The translations under genes were made by a program, and so were the position numbers. Below, piece after piece: positions 4,214-43,155 of a stretch of DNA of 64,000 nucleotides. This DNA comes from Thermoplasmatales archaeon SW_10_69_26 (lineage in GTDB: Archaea > Thermoplasmatota > SW-10-69-26), in NCBI GenBank assembly GCA_003009755.1, contig PXUB01000001.1, positions 1 through 64,000 on the forward strand, given 5' to 3'. Under the pieces are notes generated by a model. It was not told the DNA's origin. It searched no databases and worked only from the letters and a program-made list of their open reading frames with translations. Each line of letters begins with the position of its first letter. Position 1 is the first letter of the stretch.

Positions 4214-4271
4214 CGTGGCTGCCGTTGGCCGGCTGGGACGGGTAAGGCTTCCGGTCGCGTCCCGGCCGGGG

Positions 4272-4565
4272 CTACCCGTCCGCGCCCTCGTGCTCGACGA
4301 CGTAGCTCGCAAACGGCTCAAGCGGGACGGCGAAGCCGGCGGCGACAGGCTCGCCGTCGACGCGGACGGTGATTGTGGCGTTCCCCTCGGCCGCGTGGGT
4401 CTCCCCCTCGTCGGTCGTGATCGCGCCCGAACCGACCTCCCAACCGATCGAGGCGAAGAAGTCCTGCAGCGTGAGCCCCTCCTCGTGGATGTGGATCGTG
4501 GCCCCGGTGGCGTCCTCGGCGCCCTCCTCGAGGTGGACGTGGCGGACCGCCAGCTGGGCGTTCAT
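4272..4565 (-). CDS. Hypothetical His-containing protein, possibly N-terminally truncated
   Basis: Acidic ORF with host-like codon use (HVHLE…IHIHEEGLTLQDFFASIGW) between chaperone and ATPase genes. Confidence 0.5.
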   Translation of the reverse strand: MNAQLAVRHVHLEEGAEDATGATIHIHEEGLTLQDFFASIGWEVGSGAITTDEGETHAAEGNATITVRVDGEPVAAGFAVPLEPFASYVVEHEGADG

Positions 4566-4652
4566 CGCCCGGCCCCTCGCCGTCGATCGACCATCGCCCG
4601 GGACACCCCGGGCAGGGTCAACAGGCTTCCCGTCCCCGGTCCTTCGACGGCC

Positions 4653-4862
4653 TCACCGCCAGCCCAGGAAATCGAACCCCAGCTCGTCGATCGCGGCCTC
4701 CAGGTTGGGATCGGCGCCCTCCGCCAGCGAGACCGTGGCCCTGCCCTCGCCCCGATCGGCTCGGGCCTCGAGCACCCCGTCGACCTCGCCGAGGGCCTCC
4801 TCGACGCGCTTCTCGCATCCACCGCAGTTCATCCCGCCGACGGCGATCGTGCGTTCCGACAT
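4653..4862 (-). CDS. Heavy-metal-associated (CopZ-like) metallochaperone
   Basis: MSERTIAVGGMNCGGCEKRV, GMxCxxC motif. Confidence 0.85.
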   Translation of the reverse strand: MSERTIAVGGMNCGGCEKRVEEALGEVDGVLEARADRGEGRATVSLAEGADPNLEAAIDELGFDFLGWR

Positions 4863-4977
4863 GGACGGAAAATTATGTGGCGGGTCCGGCAAGGACCTGT
4901 CGGTTCCCGCCATCGGATCGCCGCGAGACGGCTCGGCCCCTACCTTCATCACAGGCCGCACCCTTGAGGGGGGCGTC

Positions 4978-6018
4978 GTGGCCCCCGAGGATCCGTCGTT
5001 CGCTCACGTCTGCATGGGCGGGACCTTCTCGCCGCTGCACCGAGGCCATCGAGCGCTGTTGGCGCGGGCCTTGACGATCGGCGAGCAGGTGTTCGTGGGA
5101 GTCACCAGCGGCGATCTGGCGCGGCGGGGCCGGGAGCGCAAGGTGCCCGCCGTCGAGGACCGCATCGCGGGCATCGAGGCCTTCCTAAGCGAGCGGTCCG
5201 CGCTGGATCGCGTCGAGGTCGCCCCGATCGAGGATCCGTTCGGGCGGGCGCTGGAGCCTCGCTTCGAGGCGATCGTCGTCAGCCCGGAGACCAGCGACAC
5301 GGCCGAGGCGATCAACGCCGAACGCCGCAAGCGAGATCTCGATCCCCTGGCCGTCGACGAGGTCCCGTTCGTGCTCGGCCTGGACGGCCAGCCGGTCAAC
5401 GGAACCCGCGTCGCCCGGGGCGAGATCGACCCCGAGGGCCTGCAGCCGCGATCGGTGCAGCTGGCGGTGGGATCGGCGAACCCGGTCAAGGTGGAGGCCA
5501 GCGAGCAGGTGTTCGGTCGCTTCGTCCCGACCGTGGACGCGTGGACCGTGGACGTCGAGACGGGCGTCAGCGAGCAGCCGCGCGACGCCGAGGGACCGAA
5601 GGGGGCAGCCACGCGGGCCCGCAACGCGCTGGCAGCCAGCGACGAGGCCGGCTTGGGCGTGGGCATCGAGGCCGCGCTCGTCGACGACGAGGCCAGCGGC
5701 GAGACGTTCGACGTGCAATACGCGGCGATCGCGGACGCCCAGGGCCGCGTGACGACCGGCGCCGGGCCGGGCTTCAGCTACCCGCCGGGCGTGCTGTCGG
5801 CGGTCGAGGAGGGGCGCACGATCGGCGAGGTGTTCGACGCGCTCGAGGACCGGGCCGGCGTCGGCCAGGCCGAGGGCGCGATCGGCGTCTTGACCGGCGG
5901 GGCGGCCACGCGCACCGAGCTGACCGAGTGGGCCGTGCTGAGCGCGCTGGTGCCGCGCCTGCAGCCGGACTGGTACCGGCCGCTGCCGGGCGAGGAGCTG
6001 GACCTCGACCTCGAGTAG
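4978..6018 (+). CDS. coaD: Fusion of archaeal phosphopantetheine adenylyltransferase and inosine/xanthosine triphosphatase (YjjX-like)
   Basis: N-term GGTFSPLHRGH and IVVSPET; C-term VGSANPVKV, GVSEQP, GVGIEA, GAIGVLTGG. Confidence 0.85.
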   Translation: MAPEDPSFAHVCMGGTFSPLHRGHRALLARALTIGEQVFVGVTSGDLARRGRERKVPAVEDRIAGIEAFLSERSALDRVEVAPIEDPFGRALEPRFEAIVVSPETSDTAEAINAERRKRDLDPLAVDEVPFVLGLDGQPVNGTRVARGEIDPEGLQPRSVQLAVGSANPVKVEASEQVFGRFVPTVDAWTVDVETGVSEQPRDAEGPKGAATRARNALAASDEAGLGVGIEAALVDDEASGETFDVQYAAIADAQGRVTTGAGPGFSYPPGVLSAVEEGRTIGEVFDALEDRAGVGQAEGAIGVLTGGAATRTELTEWAVLSALVPRLQPDWYRPLPGEELDLDLE

Positions 6019-6313
6019 GTGCGGCCACGGTCTCTGTGGGGAGGGAACACGCGGGGGAGCACAGACACAGAGGCCAGCAGAGGAAAGAGGGGCGAACAGA
6101 GCCGAGCGGCAAGGTGGCCGTTGCGGTGGAGTTTCCCCTCACCGGCCCTCCACGATGGTCCCTCCACTTTCACTCCGATCGTCAGCCTCCCCTTCCTCTC
6201 CGGGATCCCCTGCGCCTCCGTGTCCCTGGGGCGGGTTCGTCACCGCTCGCCCGCCTGTCACGACCGGTGACACCCGGGTGTGACAACGAGGGCGTCCGGA
6301 CAGTTGCCACAAG

Positions 6314-6469
6314 CTTTAAGTTCGACCTTGCGACCGTATGGCATGCCTCGGTGACGAGGCGGTGTTGCCGACCGAGCCGGCCGCTAACGCGGTCCGGGTA
6401 GTGCCGAGTACCCCAGCCGCGCGGCTGGCTCGGAGGGCGACACCTGGAGAAGAGGCCAGGTGTTGACCC
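6314..6469 (+). promoter_or_regulatory. TATA-like box and long structured 5' leader
   Basis: CTTTAAG at about 6314, followed by nested stems 6345-6463 ahead of ATG 6470. Confidence 0.5.
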
Positions 6470-7036
6470 ATGCCCGCATATGCCAAGCTCGCCACAGCTC
6501 TCGCCATGTCCCTCGCCCTCGTGGGTGCAGGGACCTCGCTCGCCCAGTCGACGACCGCCCTCGCCAGCCACACGGCCTACGTGTCGATGGTGGACGTCGT
6601 GGAGACCCCCGGCGCCCAGGAGTGGGCCGGGACCGTCTCCTGCGACGTCCCCGAGCACGAGCGCATGATCCGGGAGACGTTGGGTCGGCCGACGTGCCTG
6701 ACCGACAAGTTCGCCTACGTCTACCCGAGCGACGGGCCGGCCCCCTGGACGGCCTCGATCGAGGACGTCGACCAGCAGACCTACGTCGACGAGGCGGGCA
6801 CCGTGCGCCAGGTGGCCGAGGTCAGCTACCAGACGATCAGCCAAAGCCCCGAGGGCGGCCCCGAGCTCGTGAAGGCCATGGCCTCCGAGATCCGACCGGA
6901 GGCCGGCGGGGGCGACGAGGGATCCTACGCGCTGCCGATGAACGAGGAGCTGCTCGAGGAAGGCGACGACGCGTTGACCGTGGACGTCGGGCCCGCGCCG
7001 GGCGAGGCCTCCCAGACCGCGCTGGGCGCCGACTGA
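6470..7036 (+). CDS. Secreted hypothetical protein
   Basis: Signal peptide (KLATALAMSLALVGAGTSLA), acidic mature region with two Cys. Confidence 0.7.
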   Translation: MPAYAKLATALAMSLALVGAGTSLAQSTTALASHTAYVSMVDVVETPGAQEWAGTVSCDVPEHERMIRETLGRPTCLTDKFAYVYPSDGPAPWTASIEDVDQQTYVDEAGTVRQVAEVSYQTISQSPEGGPELVKAMASEIRPEAGGGDEGSYALPMNEELLEEGDDALTVDVGPAPGEASQTALGAD

Positions 7037-11653: not shown

Positions 11654-12529
11654 ATGCCGTACCTCGGGTTCGCGACCTGCGCCGGCATCTGGGGGTCCAC
11701 GTTCCTGGTGATCCGGCTGGGCAACCAGGTCGTGGACCCGCTGTGGGCAGCCACGTTGCGCCTGGTGCTGGCCGGCGTGGCCCTCGTCGGCCTCACGTCC
11801 CTGCTCGGGCGGGCCTGGCCCACCGGCGAGGCGCTGCAGGCTGCCGTCCTGTACGGGCTGGGCGAGTTCGGCGCCGGTTTCGCCCTGCTGTACTGGGGGG
11901 AGACGGTCGTGCCGAGCGGGATCGCCGCCACGCTGTTCGCCACCATCCCGCTGTGGACGGCCGGCATGGCGGCCGCGCTCGGCGTCGAGCGCTTCGACGG
12001 GCAGCGGCTCGTCGGCGCCCTCGTCGCCGTGACCGGCGTCGCGGTCGTGTTCGGCGGCGAGCTGTCGCGCGCGGTACCCTGGCAGGGCTTGCTGGCGGTG
12101 TTGGGCGCGGCGGCGTTCGCTTCGCTGGGCAGCGTGCTGCTGAAGCGCGGGGGCCGCGTGGACGTGATCCCCGTGAACGCGATCGCCACGCTCGTCGGCG
12201 CCACCGTGACCGCCTCGGCGAGCCTGCTCGCCGGCGAGACCCAGACGCTGCCGTCGACGTTCGCGGGCTGGTGGCCGATCGTCTACCTCACGGTCGGCGG
12301 CTCGCTGGTCGCCTTCCTCGTCTACGCGTGGTTGATCGACATCTGGCCGATCACGAACACGAACATGGTGAGCGTGACCGTGCCCGTGACGGGCCTCGTG
12401 CTCGGGACCGTCTTCGGCGGCGAGAACCCCTCGCCGTTGGCTGTTCTCGGCGCGGGCCTGGTGATGGTGGGCCTGGTCGTCGTGCTCCGCCGGGGTCCGG
12501 GCGAGCGGGAGCCGACCGAGCTGGACTGA
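11654..12529 (+). CDS. EamA/DMT family transporter
   Basis: IWGSTF start motif, about 10 TM helices in two repeats, FGGE motifs. Confidence 0.88.
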   Translation: MPYLGFATCAGIWGSTFLVIRLGNQVVDPLWAATLRLVLAGVALVGLTSLLGRAWPTGEALQAAVLYGLGEFGAGFALLYWGETVVPSGIAATLFATIPLWTAGMAAALGVERFDGQRLVGALVAVTGVAVVFGGELSRAVPWQGLLAVLGAAAFASLGSVLLKRGGRVDVIPVNAIATLVGATVTASASLLAGETQTLPSTFAGWWPIVYLTVGGSLVAFLVYAWLIDIWPITNTNMVSVTVPVTGLVLGTVFGGENPSPLAVLGAGLVMVGLVVVLRRGPGEREPTELD

Positions 12530-33383: not shown

Positions 33384-34751
33384 TCAGGGTCCCAGCTCGT
33401 CGGGCAGATCGCCCATGTCGAGCTGCTGCATCAACCGTTTCTGCATGCCGCGGTCGCCCGACAAGCCTTCGATCGCGCGCTGGCTCATCTCGTAGTACTT
33501 GAGCAGCTCTTTGACGTCCTCGGGCTCGCAGCCGCTGCCCGTCGCGATGCGGCGCAGGCGTGAGCCTTTGATCTCGTCGGGGTTGGACATCTCCCAGTCC
33601 GTCATGGAGTCCATGATGATCTGGAACTGCTCCATCTGCTCCTCGGATTGAGCCATCTGGTCCTTGGGGAGGTTCTGCTTCATGCCGCCGATGCCGGGGA
33701 TCATGTCCACGATCTTGTTCATCGGCCCCATGTTGGAGAGCATCTCCATCTGGTCCTTCAGCTCGTGGAGCGTGAAGTCGCCCTCGAGGATCTTCTCGGC
33801 CGTCTCCTCGGCCTTGTCCTCGTCCTCGACGGCGTGCTGGGCCTTCTCGAGCAGGGTCTGGATGTCCCCCATGCCCAGCAGGCGGGAGATGAAGCGCTCG
33901 GCGTCGAAGGTCTCGATGTCGGCCAAGTCCTCGCCGGTCCCGACGAACACGATCGGGGCGCCGGTCTCGGAGACGGCGGACAGCGCGCCGCCCCCCTTGG
34001 CCGACCCGTCGATCTTGGTGAGGATGACGCCGGAGACGTCGACGGCGTCGTTGAACGCCTCGGCCTGGGGACCGGCTTGTTGACCGACGGTCGCGTCGAT
34101 GACGAGGATCTTCTCGTCGGGGTCGGCGACCTCGAAGACATCCTCCATCTCCTGGATGAGGTCGTCCTCGAGGCTGTGGCGACCGCTGGTGTCGACGATC
34201 TGGATGTCGGTGCGGTCCCGGAGCTCGGCGAGGCCCTCGTCGACGATCTTGGCGGCGTCGTCGTCACCGGCTTCCTTGTCCCCGTAGAAGGGGGCGTCGA
34301 CCTGGTCGCTGATCTGCTGCAGCTGGTCGTAGGCCGCCGGTCGGTGCACGTCGGCGGCGACGAGGCCGACCTGGAGGCCGCGCTGCTGGAAGTACTGGGC
34401 CAGCTTGCCGGCCGTGGTGGTCTTCCCTTGCCCGTAGAGACCGACGAGCATGATCGTCTGCGGCTTGAGCTCGATCTCTCGGCTCTCGCCGAGCACCTGG
34501 ACGAGCTCGTCGTGGACGATGCGGATGACGTGTTCGCGGGGGCTGGCGCCGGCGGCCGGCTCCTCCTCGAGGGCGCGCTCCTTGATCGAGCGCGTCATCT
34601 GGAGCGCCAGCTTGACGTTGACGTCGGCCTGGAGGAGCGCCCGCTGGATCTCGCGGACGATCTCCTCGATCAGGTCCTCGTCGACGCGGTTGGCGTTGGC
34701 CACCTTGGCGAGGGTGTCCCGCAAGTTCTCGCTGAGCGAGTCGAGGACCAC
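33384..34751 (-). CDS. srp54: Signal recognition particle protein SRP54
   Basis: LLQADVNV, GLYGQGKTT, DTSGRH, TKIDGSAKGGGA, Met-rich M domain. Confidence 0.97.
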   Translation of the reverse strand: MVLDSLSENLRDTLAKVANANRVDEDLIEEIVREIQRALLQADVNVKLALQMTRSIKERALEEEPAAGASPREHVIRIVHDELVQVLGESREIELKPQTIMLVGLYGQGKTTTAGKLAQYFQQRGLQVGLVAADVHRPAAYDQLQQISDQVDAPFYGDKEAGDDDAAKIVDEGLAELRDRTDIQIVDTSGRHSLEDDLIQEMEDVFEVADPDEKILVIDATVGQQAGPQAEAFNDAVDVSGVILTKIDGSAKGGGALSAVSETGAPIVFVGTGEDLADIETFDAERFISRLLGMGDIQTLLEKAQHAVEDEDKAEETAEKILEGDFTLHELKDQMEMLSNMGPMNKIVDMIPGIGGMKQNLPKDQMAQSEEQMEQFQIIMDSMTDWEMSNPDEIKGSRLRRIATGSGCEPEDVKELLKYYEMSQRAIEGLSGDRGMQKRLMQQLDMGDLPDELGP

Positions 34752-34824
34752 GCTTGGAACGAGCTGGCGGCTCGTCATAAAGCTTCGGTGGACGGCCGGC
34801 GGTGACAGCCCGCTGGGCGGGCGT

Positions 34825-36060
34825 TCACCCGCTCGTGGCCCGCGGTCGGGGCCGGTCGGCCGCCAGACAGGCGCGCTCGGCGGCCTGCAGGCGGGGGGCG
34901 AGCCCGAGCGCGAGCGGGCGGGCGAGGTGGCGGCGGGCGCTGGGGTCGGCCTCGTGCCAGCGTGGGGGGCGCTTGCTGGTCTCGCCGGGCTGGCGCGTCC
35001 CGCAGCGGGGGCACCGGTAGCCGGCCTCGTGCCCGATCGAGCGCATGTGGCCCCCGCAGCCGGGACAGGCGGGCGCCTGGGTGCCCTCGGCGGGCACGTG
35101 GAACAGCTTCTCCAGGTTGACCTGGCGGCCGGCGTCCTTGAGCGATCCCAGCGCGAGCAGGCGGTCGCCGGGTTCCACGGCTCGCAAACCGGTCCGCAGG
35201 TCGCCGGTGGGCTCGAAGGCGAGCACGGTGCGCTCGGCCTCGCGGGGCGTGCGCGTGGCCAGGCGGACGTGGCCGCCCTCGAGCCGCTGGGGCTCGTCAG
35301 CGGCAACGAGCGGTTGCAGGCTGGCCGCCGCGAGGTGGTCGTCGCTGGCTTGGTTGGTGACGAAGGTATAGGCTTGCTCGATCGGTTCCTCGGCCAGGCG
35401 GGCCGCGCGGTCGGCGAGGTCGTCGGGCTCGCTGGCCCGCAGGCCGAGGAGGAGGGGGCCTGGGGTGCGGGGGGCGACGAGGGCATGGTCCTCGCGGGCG
35501 TCGTAGGCGTCGAAGACGGCCTCGTGGTGGGTGTCGAGTTCGCGGGCGTGGCGAGCGTTGATCGCTCGCGGCGTGCCCCGTGCCTTGGGGTGGCGGTAGG
35601 CGATCCGTGTGTAGGTGGCCGAGGGGCCGGGCCGCCAGGCGGCGGCGCACAGGCACCCGACCAGGCCGCGACCGGTGCCGGCGGTCCAGGTGGGCACGTC
35701 GGCGAGGGCCGAGCGGGCCTCGTCGAGGCCGACGCGTTCGCGTACGCCGCGCTCGTACCAGGCCGGGGCCGGCGGCTCGGAGAGGACGGCCAGGCCGGCG
35801 CCTTTGCCCTCGGCGATGCGGGCGTGGTCGTCGACGACGGCGGCCGCGGTCTCGAGCACCGTCTCGGGGTGGAGGTCCCTCGAGAGAGGGATCGCGACGG
35901 CGGCGTTGCCGCGCGTCTTCCAGGGGTTGTCGGGATCGAGGCGGACCAGACGCGGCCGGCCATCCAACGCGTCGGGGCCGAGCCGATCGGCGATGCAGGC
36001 GGCGGCGTAGGTGGTGCATCCCCCCTGGGGGCCGTCGGTGTCGTCCAGCGTCAACAGCAC
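34825..36060 (-). CDS. tiaS: tRNA(Ile2) agmatinylcytidine synthase
   Basis: DDTDGPQGGCTT, RLVRLDPDNPWKTRGNAA, TNQASDDH, AFEPTG, CPGC/CPRC ribbon, RRHLARP. Confidence 0.9.
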   Translation of the reverse strand: MLLTLDDTDGPQGGCTTYAAACIADRLGPDALDGRPRLVRLDPDNPWKTRGNAAVAIPLSRDLHPETVLETAAAVVDDHARIAEGKGAGLAVLSEPPAPAWYERGVRERVGLDEARSALADVPTWTAGTGRGLVGCLCAAAWRPGPSATYTRIAYRHPKARGTPRAINARHARELDTHHEAVFDAYDAREDHALVAPRTPGPLLLGLRASEPDDLADRAARLAEEPIEQAYTFVTNQASDDHLAAASLQPLVAADEPQRLEGGHVRLATRTPREAERTVLAFEPTGDLRTGLRAVEPGDRLLALGSLKDAGRQVNLEKLFHVPAEGTQAPACPGCGGHMRSIGHEAGYRCPRCGTRQPGETSKRPPRWHEADPSARRHLARPLALGLAPRLQAAERACLAADRPRPRATSG

Positions 36061-36064
36061 CGGA

Positions 36065-39000
36065 TCAGCCTCCGGCCACGCGGTCGACGGTGCGGGAGCC
36101 GCCGGGGTCCAGCTGGTCGAGGGCGTCGGCGAAGGCGCTTGCGTCGGGGTAGCGGTCCTCGGGGTCGCGGGCCAGGGCCTTGGCGAGGACCTCGTTGACG
36201 GCGGCGGGGACGCCGTCGATCGGGAGCCGGACGTCGCGTTCGATCAGCTCCTCGGGGGGAGGCGTGGTGTCGGTCTGCAGGCCGAGGTGGTGCTCGCCGG
36301 TGAGGAGGTTGTAGACGAGGGCGCCGGCGGCGTAGACGTCGGCTTGGGGACCGGGCGGGTCGCCGAGGAGTTGTTCGGGCGCCATGTAGCGCGGCGTGCC
36401 GACGAAGGCGTCCTCCTGTCCGGGCGGTTCGTCGCGGCGGACGGCGACGCCGAAGTCGGTGATCTTGGCGGTCCCGTCGGGGGTGAGCAGGATGTTGGAG
36501 GGCTTGAGGTCGCGGTGCACGATGCCGGCCTCGTGGAGGGCAGCCAAGCCGTCGAGCACCTCGGCGGCCATCGGCAGGGCCTGTTTGGTCTCCATCGCCT
36601 GGTCGGTGCGGTCGGCGAGCGTGCCGCCCTCGATGTACTCCATGACGAGCAGCAGCCGGCCTTCCTCCTCGATGACGTCGTGCACGACGACGACGTTGCG
36701 GTGCTGGAGGTTGGCGGCGGTCTTGGCCTCGTGCAACAGGAGCTCGCGGGCGTCGGCGCCGACGTTCTCGAGGTCCTTGAGGACGACGTCGCGCTCGAGC
36801 ACGCTGTCCTCGGCGAGGTAGGTCGTGCCGAACCCGCCCTCGCCGAGGACGCGTTCGACGCGGAAACGGTCCACCTTGCGTGGCATGAAGCCGTGGGCAA
36901 CGGTGGCGCTGCCGTCGTCGGCGGCGACCGGCGAGGCGCTGGCGGGGCTCGTGGAGAACTCGGTGGGTCCGGTCCCGGTCCCCGTCTCCTCGCGGCGGCG
37001 GTGGTACCAGATGCCACCGGCGGCGGCGAGCCCGAGCAGTACGGCCAAGCCGAGGCCGCCGGCGAGGTAGGGGTTGTCGCTGGCGGCGCGTGTGGCGAGC
37101 GTCAGGGGGCTGGGCTCGGAGATGTCGAAGGTGCGCTGGACCTCTTCGCCGCTGGCGGGCGAGACGAGCGCGCGGTCGGGGTCGGCGGTCTCGGCGACGA
37201 TGGTGCCCGTGAACGAGCGGGGGGCCTCCGGCACGAACGAGAGCATCACGGTCCGGTTGGCGGGTTCGCCGGCGCGGAGGTTGACGTCCTGGACAGCCAA
37301 GGCCTGCGAGCCCGAGCGCAACGAGAACCGCAGGGAGACGTCGCCGGGCGGGTCGTCGCCGGTGAGGGCCAACTCGATCGTGCTCGTCGTGCCGGCCTCG
37401 AGGTCGGTGTCGGTGACGGTCCACGTGACGTGGGCCGGGGCTGGTCGGACGTCCAAGGCGAGGGGGGTCGGGTCGGAGCCGACCGGCGCCATCAGGATAG
37501 CATCCGAGCGGTCCTGGTCGGCTTCGACGAACAGCTGGCCCTGTTCGCGCGGTTGGAGCACGATCTCCTCGGGGCCGCCCGGCACGACGGGGGCGTTGGG
37601 TTCGACCGTCATCGTGCGGCCGATGCCGTTGGCGACGGTGATCTCGGCCAGCGAGCCGCGCGTGAAGGACAGCTGGGCGGGCACGGTGCAGACGTCGGCG
37701 GGGCAGTCGCCGCTGAACGTGGCCACGGTCTCGTTCCGCCAGGCCTGCTCGCTGGGGGAGAGCACGGTGCGTTGGCGGGTGGCGTTCAGGTCGCCGTCGG
37801 AGACGTGCAGCGTGACGTTGTAGACGCGGGGGGCCTGGCCGGGCAGCGTAAGCCACGCGCCGGTCTGGCCGCTGTCGTCGTCGACGGACCACCAGTAGGT
37901 CAGGTCCTCGTCGTCGGGATCGCTGGTCTCGTTGGCGGTCAGGGCCAAGCGACCGTCCTCGGTGGCCCGTTGCGTGATGCTGGGTTGAGGGGGGAGGTTG
38001 ATCTCCATCGTCCGCGAGGCGGTGACCTGGGAGGAGCCGTCGTCGACGGTGAGGTGGATGGTGTGGTTGCCGGAGGTGGTGAAGCGGTGGGTGACGGTGG
38101 AGCCTCGCTTGACCGGGCCCTCGTCGAAGCGCCAGGTGTAGGTGAGCGGGGAGCGGTCCGGGTCCTGGGACCCGCGGGCGTCGAAGACGTGGCCTTCGCC
38201 CTGCTGCCACGCGACGGTGAACTGGGCTTCGGGGGGTCGGTCCTTGCCCAGCATGCGGAGCTCGCCGTCGGGGCCGGCCCAGAGGACGCCGCCACCGTCG
38301 GCGATCGCGATGCCGGTCGGGATCTGCGAGCAGCCGGAGGGGGTCAGCGTCTTCGTCCACCGGGAGTCCAGCAACCGACGGTCCTGGTGGGGGTGGCCGA
38401 CGAGGGAGCGGATGACGGCCACGCCGCGCTCGGCCGAGCAGACGTCGGCGAGGTAGATGTCGCCGTTGGCGTCGACGGCGGGTTGGCCGAGGAGGGGGCC
38501 GAACACGTTGCCCAGTGACTTGATGTGGGCGCCGCCGAGCGTGACGATGTGGATGGACCCGCCGGCGTCGACGATGAACACGGGCTGGCTGCCGTCGGCG
38601 CCCCATCCGACGGTCGGGGCCGCGTAGATCTGGCCGTCGAGCTCGGAGCCGGGCCGTTCGGCGTCGCCGGTGCGCCAGGCGACGTCCCCGCTGGCTCGGT
38701 CCACGGCGACGACCTCTTCGTCCCCCATGACGAGGGCGATCGACGAACCGGGAGCCAGGGAGACGCCGCGCGGCGTGCAGTTGCAGTCGATGCGATCCTC
38801 GACGCTGAGCGAGCCGGCGGAGAGCTCGACGATGCCGCCCTCCTGGATGGCGACGATCGTGTCGTCGTTGTCGACGGCGACCGGGGGGCCCGGCGTGGGG
38901 CCCGGCGTCGAGGAGAGGGGCGGATCGTAGTTCGTCGGCTCCTGGAGGCTGCGCTCGTCGACGATGTCCCCCTGGGTGGTGACGGCCAGCACCGTCCAGG

Positions 39001-39856
39001 GCTCCCGGACGGTGTAGATCCGGCCGTCGGGGTCGACGACGGGGCCGGAGAGCAGCTCGCGGTCGCCGTCGATCTCGGTCTGCCAGGCCTCGGCGCGTTC
39101 CGGGTTGACGCCGCGGAGCTCGCCGTCGCCGGTGGCGGCGATGACCAAGCCCTCGGGCGTCGAGGCGGGCGGGAACGGGACCGAGGATCCCAGACGCAGT
39201 GGGGGGTCCCACAGCGGGTCACCGTCGGAGGTGAACCGGTAGGCGAGCCCGCTCCAAGTGATGGCGGTCACGTTGCCGTCCTCGTCGACGATCGGGTCGT
39301 GGAACGGCTGGTCGTCGGAGGAGCGGGCCGACCATCGCACGAGGTCGACCTGCTGGGGGCCGATGTTGAGCGATCGGCCGGAGTGCTGGGCGTCGGCGCC
39401 GTGCTGGGGCCAGGCGGGGCCGAGGCCGCCGGCGACGGGCTCGTCGGCGTGGACGAAGAAGATCGTGGAGCTGGAGCCGGTGATCTCGAGCTCGGTCGCG
39501 TTGTTGCCGGTGTCGTTGCGCGCGCTGTCGACGCTCACCGAGTGCAGCCCGGGTTGGGTCTGGGAGGGCAACGGGACGTCGATCGTGCCGGTCACGAGCG
39601 AGGAGCGGTCGGAGACGAGCGTGCGCGAGATCGAGGAGGCTTGCCGGCGGTCGTCGGGGTTCTCGACGCCGACGGTCACGTTGAGCCGGTCGACCGTCGT
39701 GTTGATCGTGAGCTGGACCTCGATCGTGGCGTCGGAGGGCCCGACGACGAGGGGCGTGGCCTGCATCTCGACGACCGCGACCTCGTCGGAGGACTGGGCC
39801 GCGGCCGGAGCGGAGAACAGCGTTCCTGCGGCCAAGAGGGCGAGGACCAACGTCAA
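36065..39856 (-). CDS. Receptor-like Ser/Thr protein kinase (PQQ-type propeller + PKD ectodomain, TM, Hanks kinase)
   Basis: Signal peptide; WPQHGADAQHSG and Trp-containing repeats; FDARGSQDPD…YTWRF PKD; TM then RRR; LGEGGFG, HRDLKPSN, DFG, GTPRYMAPE. Confidence 0.92.
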   Translation of the reverse strand: MTLVLALLAAGTLFSAPAAAQSSDEVAVVEMQATPLVVGPSDATIEVQLTINTTVDRLNVTVGVENPDDRRQASSISRTLVSDRSSLVTGTIDVPLPSQTQPGLHSVSVDSARNDTGNNATELEITGSSSTIFFVHADEPVAGGLGPAWPQHGADAQHSGRSLNIGPQQVDLVRWSARSSDDQPFHDPIVDEDGNVTAITWSGLAYRFTSDGDPLWDPPLRLGSSVPFPPASTPEGLVIAATGDGELRGVNPERAEAWQTEIDGDRELLSGPVVDPDGRIYTVREPWTVLAVTTQGDIVDERSLQEPTNYDPPLSSTPGPTPGPPVAVDNDDTIVAIQEGGIVELSAGSLSVEDRIDCNCTPRGVSLAPGSSIALVMGDEEVVAVDRASGDVAWRTGDAERPGSELDGQIYAAPTVGWGADGSQPVFIVDAGGSIHIVTLGGAHIKSLGNVFGPLLGQPAVDANGDIYLADVCSAERGVAVIRSLVGHPHQDRRLLDSRWTKTLTPSGCSQIPTGIAIADGGGVLWAGPDGELRMLGKDRPPEAQFTVAWQQGEGHVFDARGSQDPDRSPLTYTWRFDEGPVKRGSTVTHRFTTSGNHTIHLTVDDGSSQVTASRTMEINLPPQPSITQRATEDGRLALTANETSDPDDEDLTYWWSVDDDSGQTGAWLTLPGQAPRVYNVTLHVSDGDLNATRQRTVLSPSEQAWRNETVATFSGDCPADVCTVPAQLSFTRGSLAEITVANGIGRTMTVEPNAPVVPGGPEEIVLQPREQGQLFVEADQDRSDAILMAPVGSDPTPLALDVRPAPAHVTWTVTDTDLEAGTTSTIELALTGDDPPGDVSLRFSLRSGSQALAVQDVNLRAGEPANRTVMLSFVPEAPRSFTGTIVAETADPDRALVSPASGEEVQRTFDISEPSPLTLATRAASDNPYLAGGLGLAVLLGLAAAGGIWYHRRREETGTGTGPTEFSTSPASASPVAADDGSATVAHGFMPRKVDRFRVERVLGEGGFGTTYLAEDSVLERDVVLKDLENVGADARELLLHEAKTAANLQHRNVVVVHDVIEEEGRLLLVMEYIEGGTLADRTDQAMETKQALPMAAEVLDGLAALHEAGIVHRDLKPSNILLTPDGTAKITDFGVAVRRDEPPGQEDAFVGTPRYMAPEQLLGDPPGPQADVYAAGALVYNLLTGEHHLGLQTDTTPPPEELIERDVRLPIDGVPAAVNEVLAKALARDPEDRYPDASAFADALDQLDPGGSRTVDRVAGG

Positions 39857-39995
39857 GGTCGCCGCGCCGTGGCGAGCTCGTGCGCGCGGGTGCAGGATGG
39901 CTGTGCCCCTCCCAAGCCCATTCCGACGGGGAGGACGTAACGTTTGCGGTCCCGGCCTCCGGCTCTCGGGGCCTCAGGGGGCCCGCAGGGGCTCA

Positions 39996-40312
39996 GCCGT
40001 GGGAGAGGGAAGGGATGACCCGGCCCCACGACGGGACCCGCTGCCGGCACCCAGGCGAGCGCGAGCTCCCCAGGCCCCGGCAGCGGGGGGATGCACACTG
40101 TGCGTATCGTCGATGGGATGTGGGATGGGACGGGTCGGGAGCCGGGTGGGCTTGGTGCCCACCGCCGCGATGGGCGTGTTGTATTTCAAAGCCGTGAAAG
40201 CTGACGAGAGGGAACGCCAACAGCCGGTTGCACGGTCTTCGGACGTTCAGATCGGACGTTTCCGTCGACACGGGAACCCCGTTCCAAGCGACGTCCTTCA
40301 CGACGTAGCCCC
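39996..40312 (-). repeat. Tandem repeat unit A (upstream element + TATA + structured RNA)
   Basis: Aligns with 40417-40678 apart from a hairpin insertion at 40037-40087. Confidence 0.9.
40000..40165 (-). ncRNA. Candidate structured ncRNA, copy A
   Basis: Downstream of TTTGAAATA; 5' hairpin, closing stem with covarying pair, CU-rich 3' tail. Confidence 0.55.
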
Positions 40313-40416
40313 CGACGACCGCGGGTCGATCGAGGGACGAGCTGCGACGCTGACGCCGGCGAGGAGCGGGAGCAAGCGCCTCCAGCTCCCCGACGAGAGG
40401 GGAACCTGCAAGCGTG

Positions 40417-40678
40417 GCCGTGAGAGGAGAAGGATGGCCCGGCCCCACGACGCGGAGGGATGCACTGTGCGTACCGTCGATGGGATGTGGGATGGGACGG
40501 GCCGGGAGCCGGGTGGGCTTGGTGCCCACCCCCGCGATGAGGGTGTTGTATTTCAAAGCCGTGAAAGCTGACAGCAGGATACGCCAACCGCCGGTTGCAA
40601 GGCTTGTCGACGTTCAGACGCGGCGTTTCCGCTGACAAGCGAACCCCGTTCCAGGCGGCCTCCTTGACGATGTAACCC
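40417..40678 (-). repeat. Tandem repeat unit B
   Basis: Second copy; near-identical core 40459-40572, more diverged upstream part. Confidence 0.9.
40420..40532 (-). ncRNA. Candidate structured ncRNA, copy B
   Basis: Same fold as copy A without the inserted hairpin. Confidence 0.55.
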
Positions 40679-40874
40679 GGCTCAGCGGTGGGCCCATCTT
40701 CCACTCCGAGCGGTGGATCGCAGCCCGGGCACCGCCGATGCAAGGCGAGGTGGTTGGGGTCGCAGCGGGCCACGAAGCGGGCGAGCCACGCCCGTGGTTG
40801 CCCGATGCAGCTGCTCGTGAGGCTAGGCTATCGTCCATCGCTTCCGGGGCCTCTCCCCAGCCGACGAGGGGCCC

Positions 40875-41639
40875 TCAGGGGTTCCGGAAGAGGAGCAACG
40901 AGCGCCCGACGCCGATCACGTCGCCGTGGGTGAGCTCGACCTCGTCGCCGCCGCGCAGCTCCTGGTCCCAGTTGACGATGGTGCCGTTGAGGCTCTCGGC
41001 GTCGCGCAGGCGGAACGTGCCGCCTTCGTGGGTGAGGACGGCGTGCTTGCGCGAGATGAACAGGTCGTACTCGAGGGGGACGTCGACCTCCTCGCCGCCC
41101 ACCTGGCGTTCGCGGCCGACCAGCCACTCCATCGGTTCGGCCTTGCTCCGCAACGGGAACACGCGGCCCTCGCGGATCCCGCGGATGAGGATGAGCTGGG
41201 CGAGCGCGTCCTCGGTCTCGGGGGTCTCGGGCTCGGATTGCTGGACGCGCGTGCGGTCGGGCACGCCGCCGGCGGCGGACTCCATGGCGAGGTTGCCCAG
41301 CGTGCGGACCTCCTCGAGCACCATGAACAGGTGGTCCTCGCGGGCGTAGTACTCCTTCGTGTGGCTGCCTTCGCCCTGGGCGACGCGGGTCTCGACGAGG
41401 TCGACCTCCTCGAGCTTGTCGATGTGGCTGAGGATCGCTTGACGGGTGAGGGGGATCTCGCGGGTGTCGCTCTCGGCGTCCTTGGACGTCTCCTCGCGGT
41501 AGGCCTCGATCTCGCCCACGTTCTTCGGTGTGGTGAGCTGGCGGAGGATGTCGAGGCGTTGGCGGTTGCCGAGCGCGGAGAGGACCAGGGACAGGCGCTC
41601 GGTGTCCACCTTGCCACCGGGGGATTGGGGATCCGGCAT
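40875..41639 (-). CDS. ArsR-like HTH + FHA domain transcriptional regulator
   Basis: LSALGNRQRLDILRQL…LTRQAILSHIDKLEEVDLV winged HTH; FHA motifs VGR, ISRKH, SLNGT, LTHGDVIGVG. Confidence 0.88.
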   Translation of the reverse strand: MPDPQSPGGKVDTERLSLVLSALGNRQRLDILRQLTTPKNVGEIEAYREETSKDAESDTREIPLTRQAILSHIDKLEEVDLVETRVAQGEGSHTKEYYAREDHLFMVLEEVRTLGNLAMESAAGGVPDRTRVQQSEPETPETEDALAQLILIRGIREGRVFPLRSKAEPMEWLVGRERQVGGEEVDVPLEYDLFISRKHAVLTHEGGTFRLRDAESLNGTIVNWDQELRGGDEVELTHGDVIGVGRSLLLFRNP

Positions 41640-41788
41640 CGCGCTGGCAAGGGGACAGGGAGGGTTTCGGTGTTTCGGGTGGGTACGGGGTGGACCGAAC
41701 AGATGGCGGACCGCTCTCGGACCTGGGAACCGCCGGTCCCCGTGATGGTCTCTCCCGACGCAAGGGGGAGACTGACCGCGAGGGAGAC

Positions 41789-42090
41789 ATGCTAGATCTG
41801 CGGTGGGACCGACGAACGGCGAACGATGGAGACCGCCCGCGGGACCGCAACCGTCGGACGTTGACCGTGTGCGAGGCCTGCCTGGGCCAGCGCACCGCCA
41901 AGCGCTGGCACGCCGACGGCAGCAAGAGCTATCGGTGGGCCGAAGCTTCGACCGAGACACCGCACGCGCATCCGCAGGATCGCTACGCCTACCTGGCGGA
42001 CGCCGATGAAGTGAGCCTGGTCCGTCTCCAGCAGGCCTGGATCGACACGCACGCCGCCACGGCCTCGCGCCGGAACGAACGAGTTAACCG
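41789..42090 (+). CDS. Small hypothetical protein with CxxC, divergent from the FHA regulator (3' end uncertain)
   Basis: GAGGGAG SD-like site before ATG; VCEACL; frame stays open to 42280, overlapping the next gene. Confidence 0.35.
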
Positions 42091-42111
42091 ACCCCTTCCG
42101 TCTGGGCCGGC

Positions 42112-43155
42112 GTGGACGGCTCTCGCCGCTGGTGGTGGCCGGCCATGGCCCTGCTGGCGCTCGGGCTCGTGGCTGGGACCGTCACCGCTCACGTCGAGTA
42201 CGTGGCCTCCGAGGGCGACCCCGTCGGCCCCCTGGACCTGTGGGGAGCCGTGGCCTCGGACCCGCTGGGCCTCACCCTGATCGCCACCACGGTCGTCGCC
42301 GCCGCGGCGGCCGGGTTCGCGTGGCGCCGGTGGGGCGAGCGGATCCCCGACGTGGACGTGCTGCGCGAGGTGCTCGACGGCTACGAGGACCTCGTCCCCT
42401 GGATGATCCGCCTCAGCGTCGGCGTTCCCCTCGTCGGTGCGGGCTTCTCCGGGTACCTGTTGACGCCGGCGTTGCCCGTCGAGCTGCGCCTGCTGCAGGT
42501 CCTCGTCGGGTTCCTGCTGCTCCTGGGCCTGACCACGCGAGGCGCCGCCCTGCTGGGCCTGGTGGGCTGGTTGTCGGTCTTCGGCGTTTACGGTCCCACG
42601 CTGTTCTTGGCCGGCGAGTACACCGGCGCGTTCATCGCGTTGATCCTCGTCGGGCCCGGCCGGCCGAGCCTCGACCACATGCTCGAGCAGGTGGCCGAGG
42701 ACGAGGGCACCTGGTACCATCGGGTCGATCCCATCCACGAGGCCGGCGAGCGGTTCCGGGCCTTCGTCGCGCCGGCACGCCCGTGGGCGCCGGTGGCGGT
42801 CCGCTTGACGTTGGGTGCCACGCTGGCTTACCTCGGCATCTGGGAGAAGATCCTCGACCCGGGGCCCGCGATCGCGTTGGCCCGCGATCTGGGCCTGCCC
42901 GGCTCGATCTCGGCCGAGGCCTGGGTCGTGGGCGCCGGGCTCGTCGAGCTCGGCGTCGGCCTGCTGCTCGTGGCGGGGCTGTTCACGCGCGCCGCGAGCG
43001 CGGCCGCCTTCCTCGTGCTGACGGTCACCTTGTTCGCGTTGCCCAACGACCCCGTGCTGGCGCACGTTTCCCTGTTCGGGCTCGCCAGCGTCGTCTTCAC
43101 GTGGGGCGTCGGTCCCCTCAGCCTCGACCGGTCCATGCAGACGGGTGATGGCTGA
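42112..43155 (+). CDS. DoxX family membrane protein
   Basis: AHVEYV N-terminus; two DoxX-like repeats (GLTTRGAA/GLFTRAAS, GRPSLD/GPLSLD). Confidence 0.8.
   Translation: MDGSRRWWWPAMALLALGLVAGTVTAHVEYVASEGDPVGPLDLWGAVASDPLGLTLIATTVVAAAAAGFAWRRWGERIPDVDVLREVLDGYEDLVPWMIRLSVGVPLVGAGFSGYLLTPALPVELRLLQVLVGFLLLLGLTTRGAALLGLVGWLSVFGVYGPTLFLAGEYTGAFIALILVGPGRPSLDHMLEQVAEDEGTWYHRVDPIHEAGERFRAFVAPARPWAPVAVRLTLGATLAYLGIWEKILDPGPAIALARDLGLPGSISAEAWVVGAGLVELGVGLLLVAGLFTRAASAAAFLVLTVTLFALPNDPVLAHVSLFGLASVVFTWGVGPLSLDRSMQTGDG

Follow-up and report, generated by a model that had tools for sequence, protein, structure and literature searches.

We analyzed a window of 64,000 nucleotides (nt) from the Thermoplasmatales archaeon SW_10_69_26 (contig PXUB01000001.1, positions 1 to 64,000; G+C content 70%). 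Two of its genes, one for a receptor-type Hanks Ser/Thr kinase and one for a regulator that combines a winged helix-turn-helix (wHTH) with an FHA domain, probably form one cognate pair of a lineage-specific Ser/Thr signaling cassette. As judged from the sequences, this cassette of uncultured Thermoplasmata-type archaea would consist of a membrane sensor kinase and a dedicated transcription factor of the ArsR-type wHTH-FHA kind. Both genes lie on the minus strand with the regulator gene upstream, and a spacer of 1018 nt separates them. The initial annotation of this DNA had already proposed that the two act together in a phosphothreonine circuit, and both the gene neighborhoods and the co-divergence of the partners speak for such a unit. 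The assembly to which the window belongs (G000 in the following) consists of 49 contigs totaling 2.82 Mb, with a completeness of 95%. It was compared with all members of its class in the genome collection (21 genomes from 6 families); the five other genomes of its own family are referred to as G001 to G005.

HTH-FHA genes and Pkinase domains were each found in all 21 genomes of the class, with 1 to 16 HTH-FHA matches per genome. G000 contains seven HTH-FHA matches and seven Pkinase matches, five of them above the Pfam cut-off. All five share a contig with an HTH-FHA gene, the gaps between the matched stretches being 21, 115, 128, 1398 and 4016 nt. Among the 150 Pkinase matches listed for the class (21 more matches exist), 97 are accompanied on their contig by an HTH-FHA match at a distance of up to 5 kb; conversely, 96 of the 139 HTH-FHA matches have a Pkinase match within this distance. 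By our own estimate, chance would account for about 2-3% per gene, given about seven of each per 2.8 Mb. The pairs occur in four arrangements: convergent (45), on the same strand with the regulator downstream (22) or upstream (21), and divergent (9). The sizes of the gaps agree with a kinase domain that is encoded close to the 3' end. In a phylum sample of 301 genomes the HTH-FHA profile matched every one of the 21 class members as well as 10 of the 280 remaining genomes, 6 of these 10 with full-length matches. For five of these genomes outside the class, a comparison by eye placed 22 of 26 above-cut-off Pkinase matches within 5 kb of an HTH-FHA match.

The partners also co-diverge. Each regulator was paired with the nearest kinase within 5 kb, the matched stretch being at least 600 nt long for the regulator and at least 540 nt for the kinase. 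This resulted in 83 pairs, two of which were excluded because the matched stretch contained an in-frame stop. For the remaining 81 pairs, the distances between kinase domains and those between regulators correlate with a Mantel r of 0.564, a value reached by none of 2000 label permutations; restricted to paralogues within the same genome (188 comparisons), r rises to 0.747, while permutations within genomes averaged 0.154, peaked at 0.511 and again failed to reach the observed value in any of 2000 cases, although sequence relatedness inflates Mantel statistics and such permutation counts are not probabilities, a point to be set against our reading. Kinase and regulator have the same nearest neighbor in 34 of the 81 pairs. 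The within-genome correlation speaks for a joint duplication and divergence of the two genes.

The kinase gene had been described as encoding a protein of 1263 amino acids (aa) with a signal peptide, a PQQ-type propeller, PKD domains, one transmembrane (TM) helix and a C-terminal kinase of the RD type with all catalytic motifs. The open reading frame (ORF), Pfam matches, hydropathy and an alignment with StkP bear this out, the signal peptide being represented by a hydrophobic N-terminus. The architecture is retained in all 11 aligned orthologs (1230-1269 aa, picked from about 15 ortholog-like rows; 12 sequences together with the kinase of the window), and a second stretch matching PKD_4 follows downstream of the first PKD domain. 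Since hydropathy analysis yields exactly two hydrophobic segments (aa 1-19 and 931-949), the large N-terminal part should be located outside the cell and the kinase domain inside.

The kinase domain is closest to the bacterial kinases StkP, PknA and PknB (E 1e-39 to 1e-36). Residue-by-residue alignment with StkP identified the GxGxxG loop, the lysine of β3, the glutamate of αC and the HRDLKPSN, DFG and APE motifs, and these catalytic motifs are invariant across the 12 aligned sequences. By profile and motifs the protein is a Hanks-type Ser/Thr kinase with predicted activity. The model for PASTA kinases (NF033483) matched the kinase domain only, which is located C-terminal to the TM helix, with 201 bits against a cut-off of 450, and a PASTA domain was not matched. 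The activation loop (DFGVAVRRDEPPGQEDAFVGTPRYMAPE) is acidic and, despite the RD type of the kinase, lacks Ser and Thr ahead of the P+1 GT; the paralogues C13, C12 and C43 do carry Thr or Ser there.

Two start sites are conceivable for the kinase gene. The first start codon of the ORF is the TTG at 39856, which yields an N-terminus lacking a charged n-region, a caveat for the putative signal peptide. In the region 39853-39973 an ATG (39919-39921), located 16 nt past a promoter-like box, opens a frame of 22 codons (MGLGGAQ...) that ends at 39853; in the orthologs the box has a similar distance to the start codon. The encoded peptide is similar to the first residues of the G001 ortholog (MGPGGAT...), yet its reading frame differs from that of the kinase ORF. 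The discrepancy would be explained by an assembly error (a 1-nt indel in a run of G) or by a genuine TTG start.

The type I topology is less peculiar than the initial annotation suggested when it likened the protein to eukaryotic receptors. In the other four kinases of G000 (626-966 aa), hydropathy indicates 8-11 hydrophobic segments at the N-terminus, and the kinase domain comes after them. A C-terminal kinase domain is common to all five kinases of this genome, and the single-pass form with its ectodomain of 900 aa is one variant among multi-pass paralogues. Nor is this order peculiar in archaea: Table 3 of PMC5007285 lists N-terminal TM domains for the Sulfolobus kinases Sso-PK1 and Sso-PK4.

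The regulator (254 aa) agrees with its earlier description as a co-oriented winged-helix protein with an FHA domain that keeps the GR, SxxH and NG residues, as judged by its sequence, the Pfam FHA match (aa 172-245, E 3.6e-13, 50.2 bits against 20.7) and a structural model. The model was calculated with AlphaFold 2 on an alignment of 26 relatives; of 30 proteins cut from loci of the class, four had been dropped as the chosen start gave long N-terminal extensions. Its mean predicted local distance difference test score (pLDDT) is 81.5. The N-terminal part shows the topology of a winged helix, with helices 13-23, 26-34 and 66-78 and wing strands 82-88 and 93-99, together with an extra β-hairpin (47-63). 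A long helix (101-120) leads into a linker with pLDDT below 50 (aa 118-141), followed by the FHA sandwich (145-252). A Foldseek search with the model ranked the FHA domains of OdhI and GarA first (TM-score 0.82-0.89, E 4e-8 to 2e-7) and chains of EmbR at ranks 17 and 29.

All 26 relatives have a Pfam FHA match, 14 match HTH_20 (best E 4.7e-10) and 4 match HTH_5. The ArsR-type signature residues R28, L29, P38, H72 and L76 are as conserved as the FHA pocket, both among the 81 kinase partners and among the 147 diverse members described below. The sequence contains no cysteine, so that the metal-sensing Cys/His sites of ArsR/SmtB proteins are missing, and the NCBIfam model HTH_metalloreg scores 23 bits on the regulator against a cut-off of 55. 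The family comprises 328 clusters at E <= 1e-30 among 1.84 billion representatives. A search of genome contigs with the single protein found nothing; with the alignment of orthologs it returned 5 Thermoplasmata-type loci and 14 bacterial matches to the FHA domain only. A complex prediction for kinase residues 955-1263 with the full regulator gave no answer (score 0.00) and provides no evidence either way.

By profile, fold and phosphothreonine-binding residues, the C-terminal domain is an FHA domain and a putative phosphothreonine reader. The pocket consists of the GR (G175, R176), SxxH (S196, H199) and NG (N218, G219) residues. Among the 81 kinase partners, G175 and S196 are conserved in all 81 and R176 and N218 in 80 each. 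To these we added a more diverse set of 147 members, comprising the regulator of the window and 146 full-length representatives clustered at 50% identity; they were taken from the best 150 matches, two having been left out by length and two with earlier identifiers. Here G175 is found in 147, R176 in 145, S196 in 138 and N218 in 141 members.

A single threonine of the disordered linker, Thr130 in the window, is as conserved as this pocket within the 147-member set (Thr in 139 members, Ser in 3). Among the 81 partners it occupies one alignment column in 72, and 4 further orthologs have it two columns away. Its flanks are variable: V, A, M, L or I predominate at position +1, and 73 of the 139 sequences have A, L or V at position +3, while 20-37 residues separate it from the conserved G154. 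Its conservation within a disordered linker therefore makes Thr130 a likely phospho-acceptor, which the FHA domain would likely bind subsequently, in cis or in trans. Both modes have precedents. In GarA and OdhI a phosphothreonine N-terminal to the FHA domain is bound in cis by the protein's own FHA domain, and in Chk2 the binding occurs in trans.

Several observations weigh against a dedicated kinase-regulator pair. Of the listed kinase matches of the class, 53 of 150 have no partner within 5 kb, and the same is true for 43 of the 139 HTH-FHA matches; many assemblies consist of hundreds of contigs, and the unpaired fraction is therefore an upper bound. Two of the seven HTH-FHA genes of G000 have no Hanks kinase nearby. 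Linkage in relatives, which the proposed circuit implied, holds for G001, G003, G004 and G005, with the same gene order on one strand. It does not hold for G002, whose best regulator ortholog (77% identical) is located on contig C42 beside an unrelated gene, with the orthologous kinase on C11. The HTH_20 match of the window's own regulator (aa 23-85) stays under the Pfam threshold (19.4 bits against 27). In the FHA pocket, the histidine of SxxH is outside the columns conserved to at least 85%, in the 81 partners as well as in the 147 members, and many paralogues have SxEN in the 26-sequence alignment. The activation loop of the kinase (36400-36480) contains no Ser or Thr except for the GT of the P+1 loop. 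Finally, the 95%-complete assembly yielded no phosphatase of the PP2C or SpoIIE type that would reset the pairs, in a search that did not extend to PPP-type enzymes.

Upstream of the spacer element discussed below, contig C11 of G002 contains a run of N (locus L042, about 2040-2140), and an assembly gap could contribute to the apparent separation of regulator and kinase. The two kinase-less HTH-FHA genes of G000 are found in other surroundings. One, on C8 (L049, 263-6789; gene at 3892-4608, plus strand), is followed by a histidine kinase of GAF-PAS-PAS-HisKA-HATPase architecture (4654-6786) and preceded by an HTH_10 protein and a CheB-CheR-PAS fusion. The other, on C25 (L050, 3184-5523; gene at 3737-4666, minus strand), is located between a hemerythrin gene and an HTH_10 gene. 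On C19 (L046, 3489-6389) a kinase ORF continues for about 270 codons beyond its kinase domain and overlaps the convergent HTH-FHA gene (5694-6392) in antisense over its whole length; a missed stop, a frameshift or a spurious frame favored by the high G+C content could account for this.

For a cognate pair we propose the following course of events. A signal at the PQQ/PKD ectodomain would activate the kinase, which would then phosphorylate Thr130 of its partner regulator. Recruitment of the regulator may involve docking of its FHA domain on a phospho-site of the kinase such as the juxtamembrane Thr985. The FHA domain would bind the phosphorylated threonine in the same chain or across a dimer, oligomerization or DNA binding would change, and transcription would change with it. 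Docking on the kinase is one option; by analogy, the linker threonine points to a switch similar to that of GarA/OdhI or Chk2. The coordinates of all features are compiled in Table 1.

Table 1. Features of the kinase-regulator locus and its neighbors, in coordinates of the window.
Feature	Position	Strand	Basis
SRP54, housekeeping neighbor	~33387-34790	-	
TiaS, housekeeping neighbor	34828-36060	-	
Gene of the receptor-type Hanks Ser/Thr kinase (1263 aa; TTG start in the listed ORF)	36065..39856	-	ORF; Pfam; 11 aligned orthologs
Protein kinase domain, aa 999-1235, RD type (HRD)	36152..36862	-	Pfam E 5.3e-48, 164 bits against 31.7; StkP alignment
Juxtamembrane Thr985, candidate phospho-site, motif ATVAxGFMPRKVxRF	36902..36904	-	Invariant in 12/12 orthologs within an otherwise variable linker
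Single TM helix, aa 931-949, followed by WYHRRREE	37010..37066	-	Hydropathy 2.01
PKD domain, aa 543-619	38000..38230	-	Pfam PF18911 (PKD_4) 2.5e-20; PF00801 (PKD) 2.4e-13
PQQ_2 β-propeller region, aa 175-396	38669..39334	-	Pfam PF13360, E 3.2e-8, 34 bits against cut-off 27.6
Hydrophobic N-terminus MTLVLALLAAGTLFSAPAAAQ, putative signal peptide	39797..39856	-	Kyte-Doolittle segment aa 1-19, score 1.92
Promoter-like box CCGCAAACGTTA before the kinase gene	39938..39949	-	ACCGCAA(A)GGTTA-like; same place in G001, G002, G003, G004, G005
Copy A, C-rich structured non-coding element with extra internal hairpin	40000..40169	-	Covariance models R1, R2: 56.9, 68.4 bits; fold
TATA-like box GGCTTTGAAATAC of copy A	40181..40193	-	Conserved in 7/7 copies
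Conserved upstream region of copy A (40190-40312 in the initial annotation)	40194..40311	-	Repeat D1; blocks conserved over 7 copies
Copy B, C-rich structured non-coding element	40419..40536	-	Models R1, R2: 95.6, 98.7 bits
TATA-like box of copy B	40548..40560	-	Sequence; alignments
Conserved upstream region of copy B (40557-40678 in the initial annotation)	40561..40678	-	Repeat D1; alignment
HTH-FHA regulator gene, 254 aa	40875..41639	-	ORF; Pfam; ATG and first residues (MPDP...) common to orthologs
FHA domain, aa 145-252	40884..41207	-	Pfam; Foldseek OdhI/GarA, TM-score 0.82-0.89
Thr130, candidate phospho-acceptor in the disordered wHTH-FHA linker	41250..41252	-	Thr in 139/147 diverse members; pLDDT < 50 for aa 118-141
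ArsR-like wHTH, aa 13-99	41343..41603	-	AlphaFold 2 model; HTH_20 in 14/26 relatives; Csa3 wHTH model 4.5e-8
DoxX-type membrane protein, housekeeping neighbor	42112-43152	+	

The spacer contains a direct repeat of 216 nt (40096-40311 and 40463-40678; 86% identity, spacing 367 nt), which the initial annotation had interpreted as the promoters of two RNAs and as likely targets of the regulator. Two candidate explanations of the repeat were rejected. A miniature inverted-repeat transposable element or other mobile repeat is ruled out, as the whole G000 assembly contains only these two copies. A coding reading could draw on a shared frame with several conservative changes, but this frame is broken by a 10-nt indel relative to G001-G005, and stops occur in the relatives.

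The duplicated DNA comprises a promoter-like box and, behind it, a C-rich structured element of 120-170 nt. The element is present upstream of the orthologous kinase gene on the same strand in all six genomes of the family and is tandemly duplicated in G000 alone. In G001, G003, G004 and G005 a single copy is located between the regulator and kinase genes, so that regulator, element and kinase follow each other on one strand. Of the earlier claim, a promoter-like box and a conserved non-coding element stand, and the element is syntenic across genera; in G002 the element stays with the kinase on C11 while the best regulator ortholog is found on another contig. A covariance model trained on five copies detected one copy in each of the five other family genomes and two in G000; the G002 copy (E 1e-10) was outside the training set.

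Read on the minus strand, about 110 nt of conserved blocks are followed by the box GG(C)CTT(C/G/T)A(A/T)ATAC and, about 25 nt further on, a short hairpin. Then follow a helix of 9-14 bp (CACCCGGCuCCCGAC ... GUCGyGGGGyCGGG), which encloses an unpaired CAUCCCAUCCCA stretch and a variable hairpin, and a pyrimidine-rich tract. The G-U pairs of the long helix fit the minus strand. In an alignment that was itself fitted to the model, 90% of the cells form pairs, compared to 30-51% when the partners are slid against each other, and most of the pairs with changes on both sides stem from one weak match in G008. On this modeling evidence an RNA structure is plausible, not proven. On the opposite (plus) strand, the C-rich loop corresponds to GGGATGTGGGATGGGACGGG at 40113-40140 and 40480-40507, in which four G3 runs separated by short loops make up a canonical G-quadruplex motif. 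On the gene strand, four C3 runs are retained in the relatives.

Upstream of 1232 confident ORFs of G000 the AT content peaks at -27 (0.47 against about 0.30), which points to mostly leaderless mRNAs. Hexamers such as GGCTTT (26 against 2) and GCCTTT (22 against 3) are among the most enriched at positions -40 to -18 of G000 genes. The box of the element fits these promoters, and we regard the whole as a plausible small-RNA gene with a conserved upstream region. Alternatively, the element could be no separate RNA gene but a cis-regulatory element of the kinase mRNA, as a long leader or an alternative upstream promoter, or a regulatory region at the level of DNA only. Its constant position upstream of the kinase on the same strand in six of six genomes, which extends to G002, would agree with this, as would the conservation of about 110 nt upstream of the box and the thin covariation of base pairs, with the double changes mostly from the weak G008 match. 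However, the kinase gene has a conserved promoter-like box of its own about 16-25 nt before the start codon in all six genomes, mRNAs of this organism seem to be mostly leaderless, and the 3' arm is followed by a pyrimidine-rich tract in all copies. We therefore prefer the small-RNA gene and regard a leader or DNA-level region as a less likely but serious alternative.

Whether related elements exist elsewhere was addressed by several searches. Rfam 15 gave no match at E up to 1 in the window region 39000-42500 or in the five orthologous loci, and a metagenome scan for the core pattern of the element gave none. Beyond the family, the covariance model found one weak match under E 0.01, in 1 of 15 other class genomes; with model R2, the class outside the family yielded weak matches only (E 0.005-0.9), none of them near a kinase. 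Two weak matches in another family, G008:C15:13632-13736 (L043) and G014:C152:4014-4159 (L150), carry CAUCCCAUCCC flanked by helix arms whose sequences differ. Either chance or a distant membership in a wider family of C-rich small RNAs could explain them; for this 11-mer we estimate a few chance occurrences per genome and draw no conclusion. A search for targets complementary to the C-rich loop gave no exact match and 13 matches with one mismatch, two of which are the element itself; these counts were not evaluated statistically. By eye, no motif common to the upstream regions of the regulator gene and the element was seen. It is possible that the element is a target of the regulator, to which it is linked by position alone.

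Another interpretation concerns the regulator itself. The HTH-FHA protein could be an adaptor or regulator of the kinase, neither transcription factor nor substrate, that docks via its FHA domain on the autophosphorylated kinase in the manner of FhaA/FipA and uses its wHTH for protein contacts. The conserved FHA pocket, the invariance of Thr985 in the juxtamembrane linker of all 12 kinases and the sub-threshold wHTH of the window would be in line with such a role. On the other hand, the ArsR-type signature is as conserved as the pocket in both sequence sets, more than half of the relatives (14 of 26) match HTH_20 with E-values down to 4.7e-10, and the conserved linker threonine would be left unexplained. 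We judge an adaptor to be unlikely and retain the phospho-switchable transcription factor.

It is very improbable that the kinase belongs to an anti-virus defense system of the PD-T4-6, MADS or BREX PglW type instead of being an environmental sensor: it does match the PADLOC models PD-T4-6 and mad6 (E 7e-69 to 1e-60), but these matches are limited to the generic kinase domain (aa 993-1251), all NCBIfam matches are far under their cut-offs (MADS6 176 against 460 bits; PglW 81 against 990), the neighbors are housekeeping genes (TiaS, SRP54, DoxX), and the kinase combines a large secreted ectodomain with a DNA-binding partner dedicated to it. We give equally little credit to the idea that the adjacency is inherited synteny devoid of functional coupling, since, although the locus is vertically inherited within the family and its orthologs are not independent, the adjacency recurs for paralogues in four gene arrangements and in other families of the phylum, and the paralogue distances co-vary within genomes.

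The window contains a single tRNA gene, tRNA-Gly(GCC), at 11807-11886, which at 80 nt is somewhat long.

What is known of signal transduction in archaea comes mostly from the archaellum network of Sulfolobus and from two-component systems acquired from bacteria. Here most Hanks kinases of a whole class of archaea appear to be coupled, each one, to a dedicated DNA-binding phosphothreonine reader, with up to ten or more pairs per genome. In a wider and more tentative picture, to which we give somewhat less than an even chance, each membrane Hanks kinase would be matched with a private ArsR-wHTH-FHA factor that is switched by phosphorylation of its linker threonine, an equivalent of two-component systems with the logic of receptor kinases and SMADs, and the pair of one family would keep an undescribed C-rich small-RNA gene in the circuit. 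Such pairs would represent a prokaryotic example of the design in which a receptor kinase acts on a phospho-switchable transcription factor. They would be well suited for studies of one-to-one specificity of Ser/Thr kinases, as the sequences define the kinase and its substrate as well as the reader domain and the candidate phospho-site.

In the open-access literature we found no earlier description of an archaeal HTH-FHA family (FHA with ArsR and Ser/Thr kinase). Where two reviews (PMC5007285, PMC10470591) deal with archaeal FHA proteins, those named are of the ArnA type. In Sulfolobus, according to PMC5007285, the kinase ST1565 phosphorylates the FHA protein ST0829, which is reported to bind the flaX promoter in a phosphorylation-dependent manner. 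The system of ArnA (ST0829) and ArnC/ArnD (ST1565) thus resembles the present one in that an archaeal Hanks kinase phosphorylates an FHA protein implicated in promoter binding and repression (PMC5007285, PMC10470591). ST1565 and ArnC are listed as not membrane-bound in Table 3 of PMC5007285. ArnA, too, has a long flexible linker between an N-terminal DNA- or partner-binding module and a C-terminal FHA domain. Its N-terminal module, however, is a Zn-ribbon with four cysteines, whereas the regulator of the window has a wHTH and no cysteine. ArnA works with the vWA protein ArnB, a kind of partner that was not looked for here, and a paralogous one-to-one expansion is not described for the ArnA system.

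The FHA domains of the actinobacterial proteins GarA and OdhI, which act with PknB and PknG, are the best structural matches of the regulator's FHA domain. In these proteins phosphorylation occurs on a threonine of a disordered segment that precedes the FHA domain, and the FHA domain of the same protein then binds this residue; the titles of the Foldseek entries agree with such a mechanism. Unlike the regulator, GarA and OdhI lack a DNA-binding domain and act on enzymes. Bacterial two-component systems offer an analogy only: sensor and DNA-binding output are encoded side by side, cognate pairs have expanded into paralogues, and the partners co-diverge. They use His-Asp phosphotransfer to a receiver domain, in contrast to a Ser/Thr phosphorylation read by an FHA domain, and there is no homology. 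A further analogy is the TGF-β receptor/SMAD pathway, in which a type I receptor with one membrane span and a Ser/Thr kinase domain targets a factor composed of a DNA-binding domain, a linker and a phospho-binding β-sandwich; the fold of the SMAD MH2 domain has been likened to the FHA fold. No homology is claimed here either, the kinase domain of the window being closest to its bacterial counterparts StkP, PknA and PknB.

The nearest described system is PknH-EmbR of M. tuberculosis. There, as in the window, the gene of a TM Hanks kinase is located directly downstream of, and co-directional with, the gene of a regulator with a winged helix and a C-terminal FHA domain. The kinase domain of PknH is N-terminal, whereas that of the window kinase is C-terminal. 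EmbR contains a DNA-binding domain of the OmpR/PhoB type and a BTAD domain (SARP family) instead of the ArsR-like winged helix, and neither Trans_reg_C nor BTAD was matched in the regulator of the window or in its 26 relatives. As reported in PMC9239209, embR lies upstream of pknH in one operon, EmbR consists of a wHTH, a BTAD and a C-terminal FHA domain, and the FHA domain is required both for the interaction with PknH and for phosphorylation by this kinase. EmbR-PknH is a single pair, whereas the archaeal genomes described here contain 1-16 HTH-FHA matches each.

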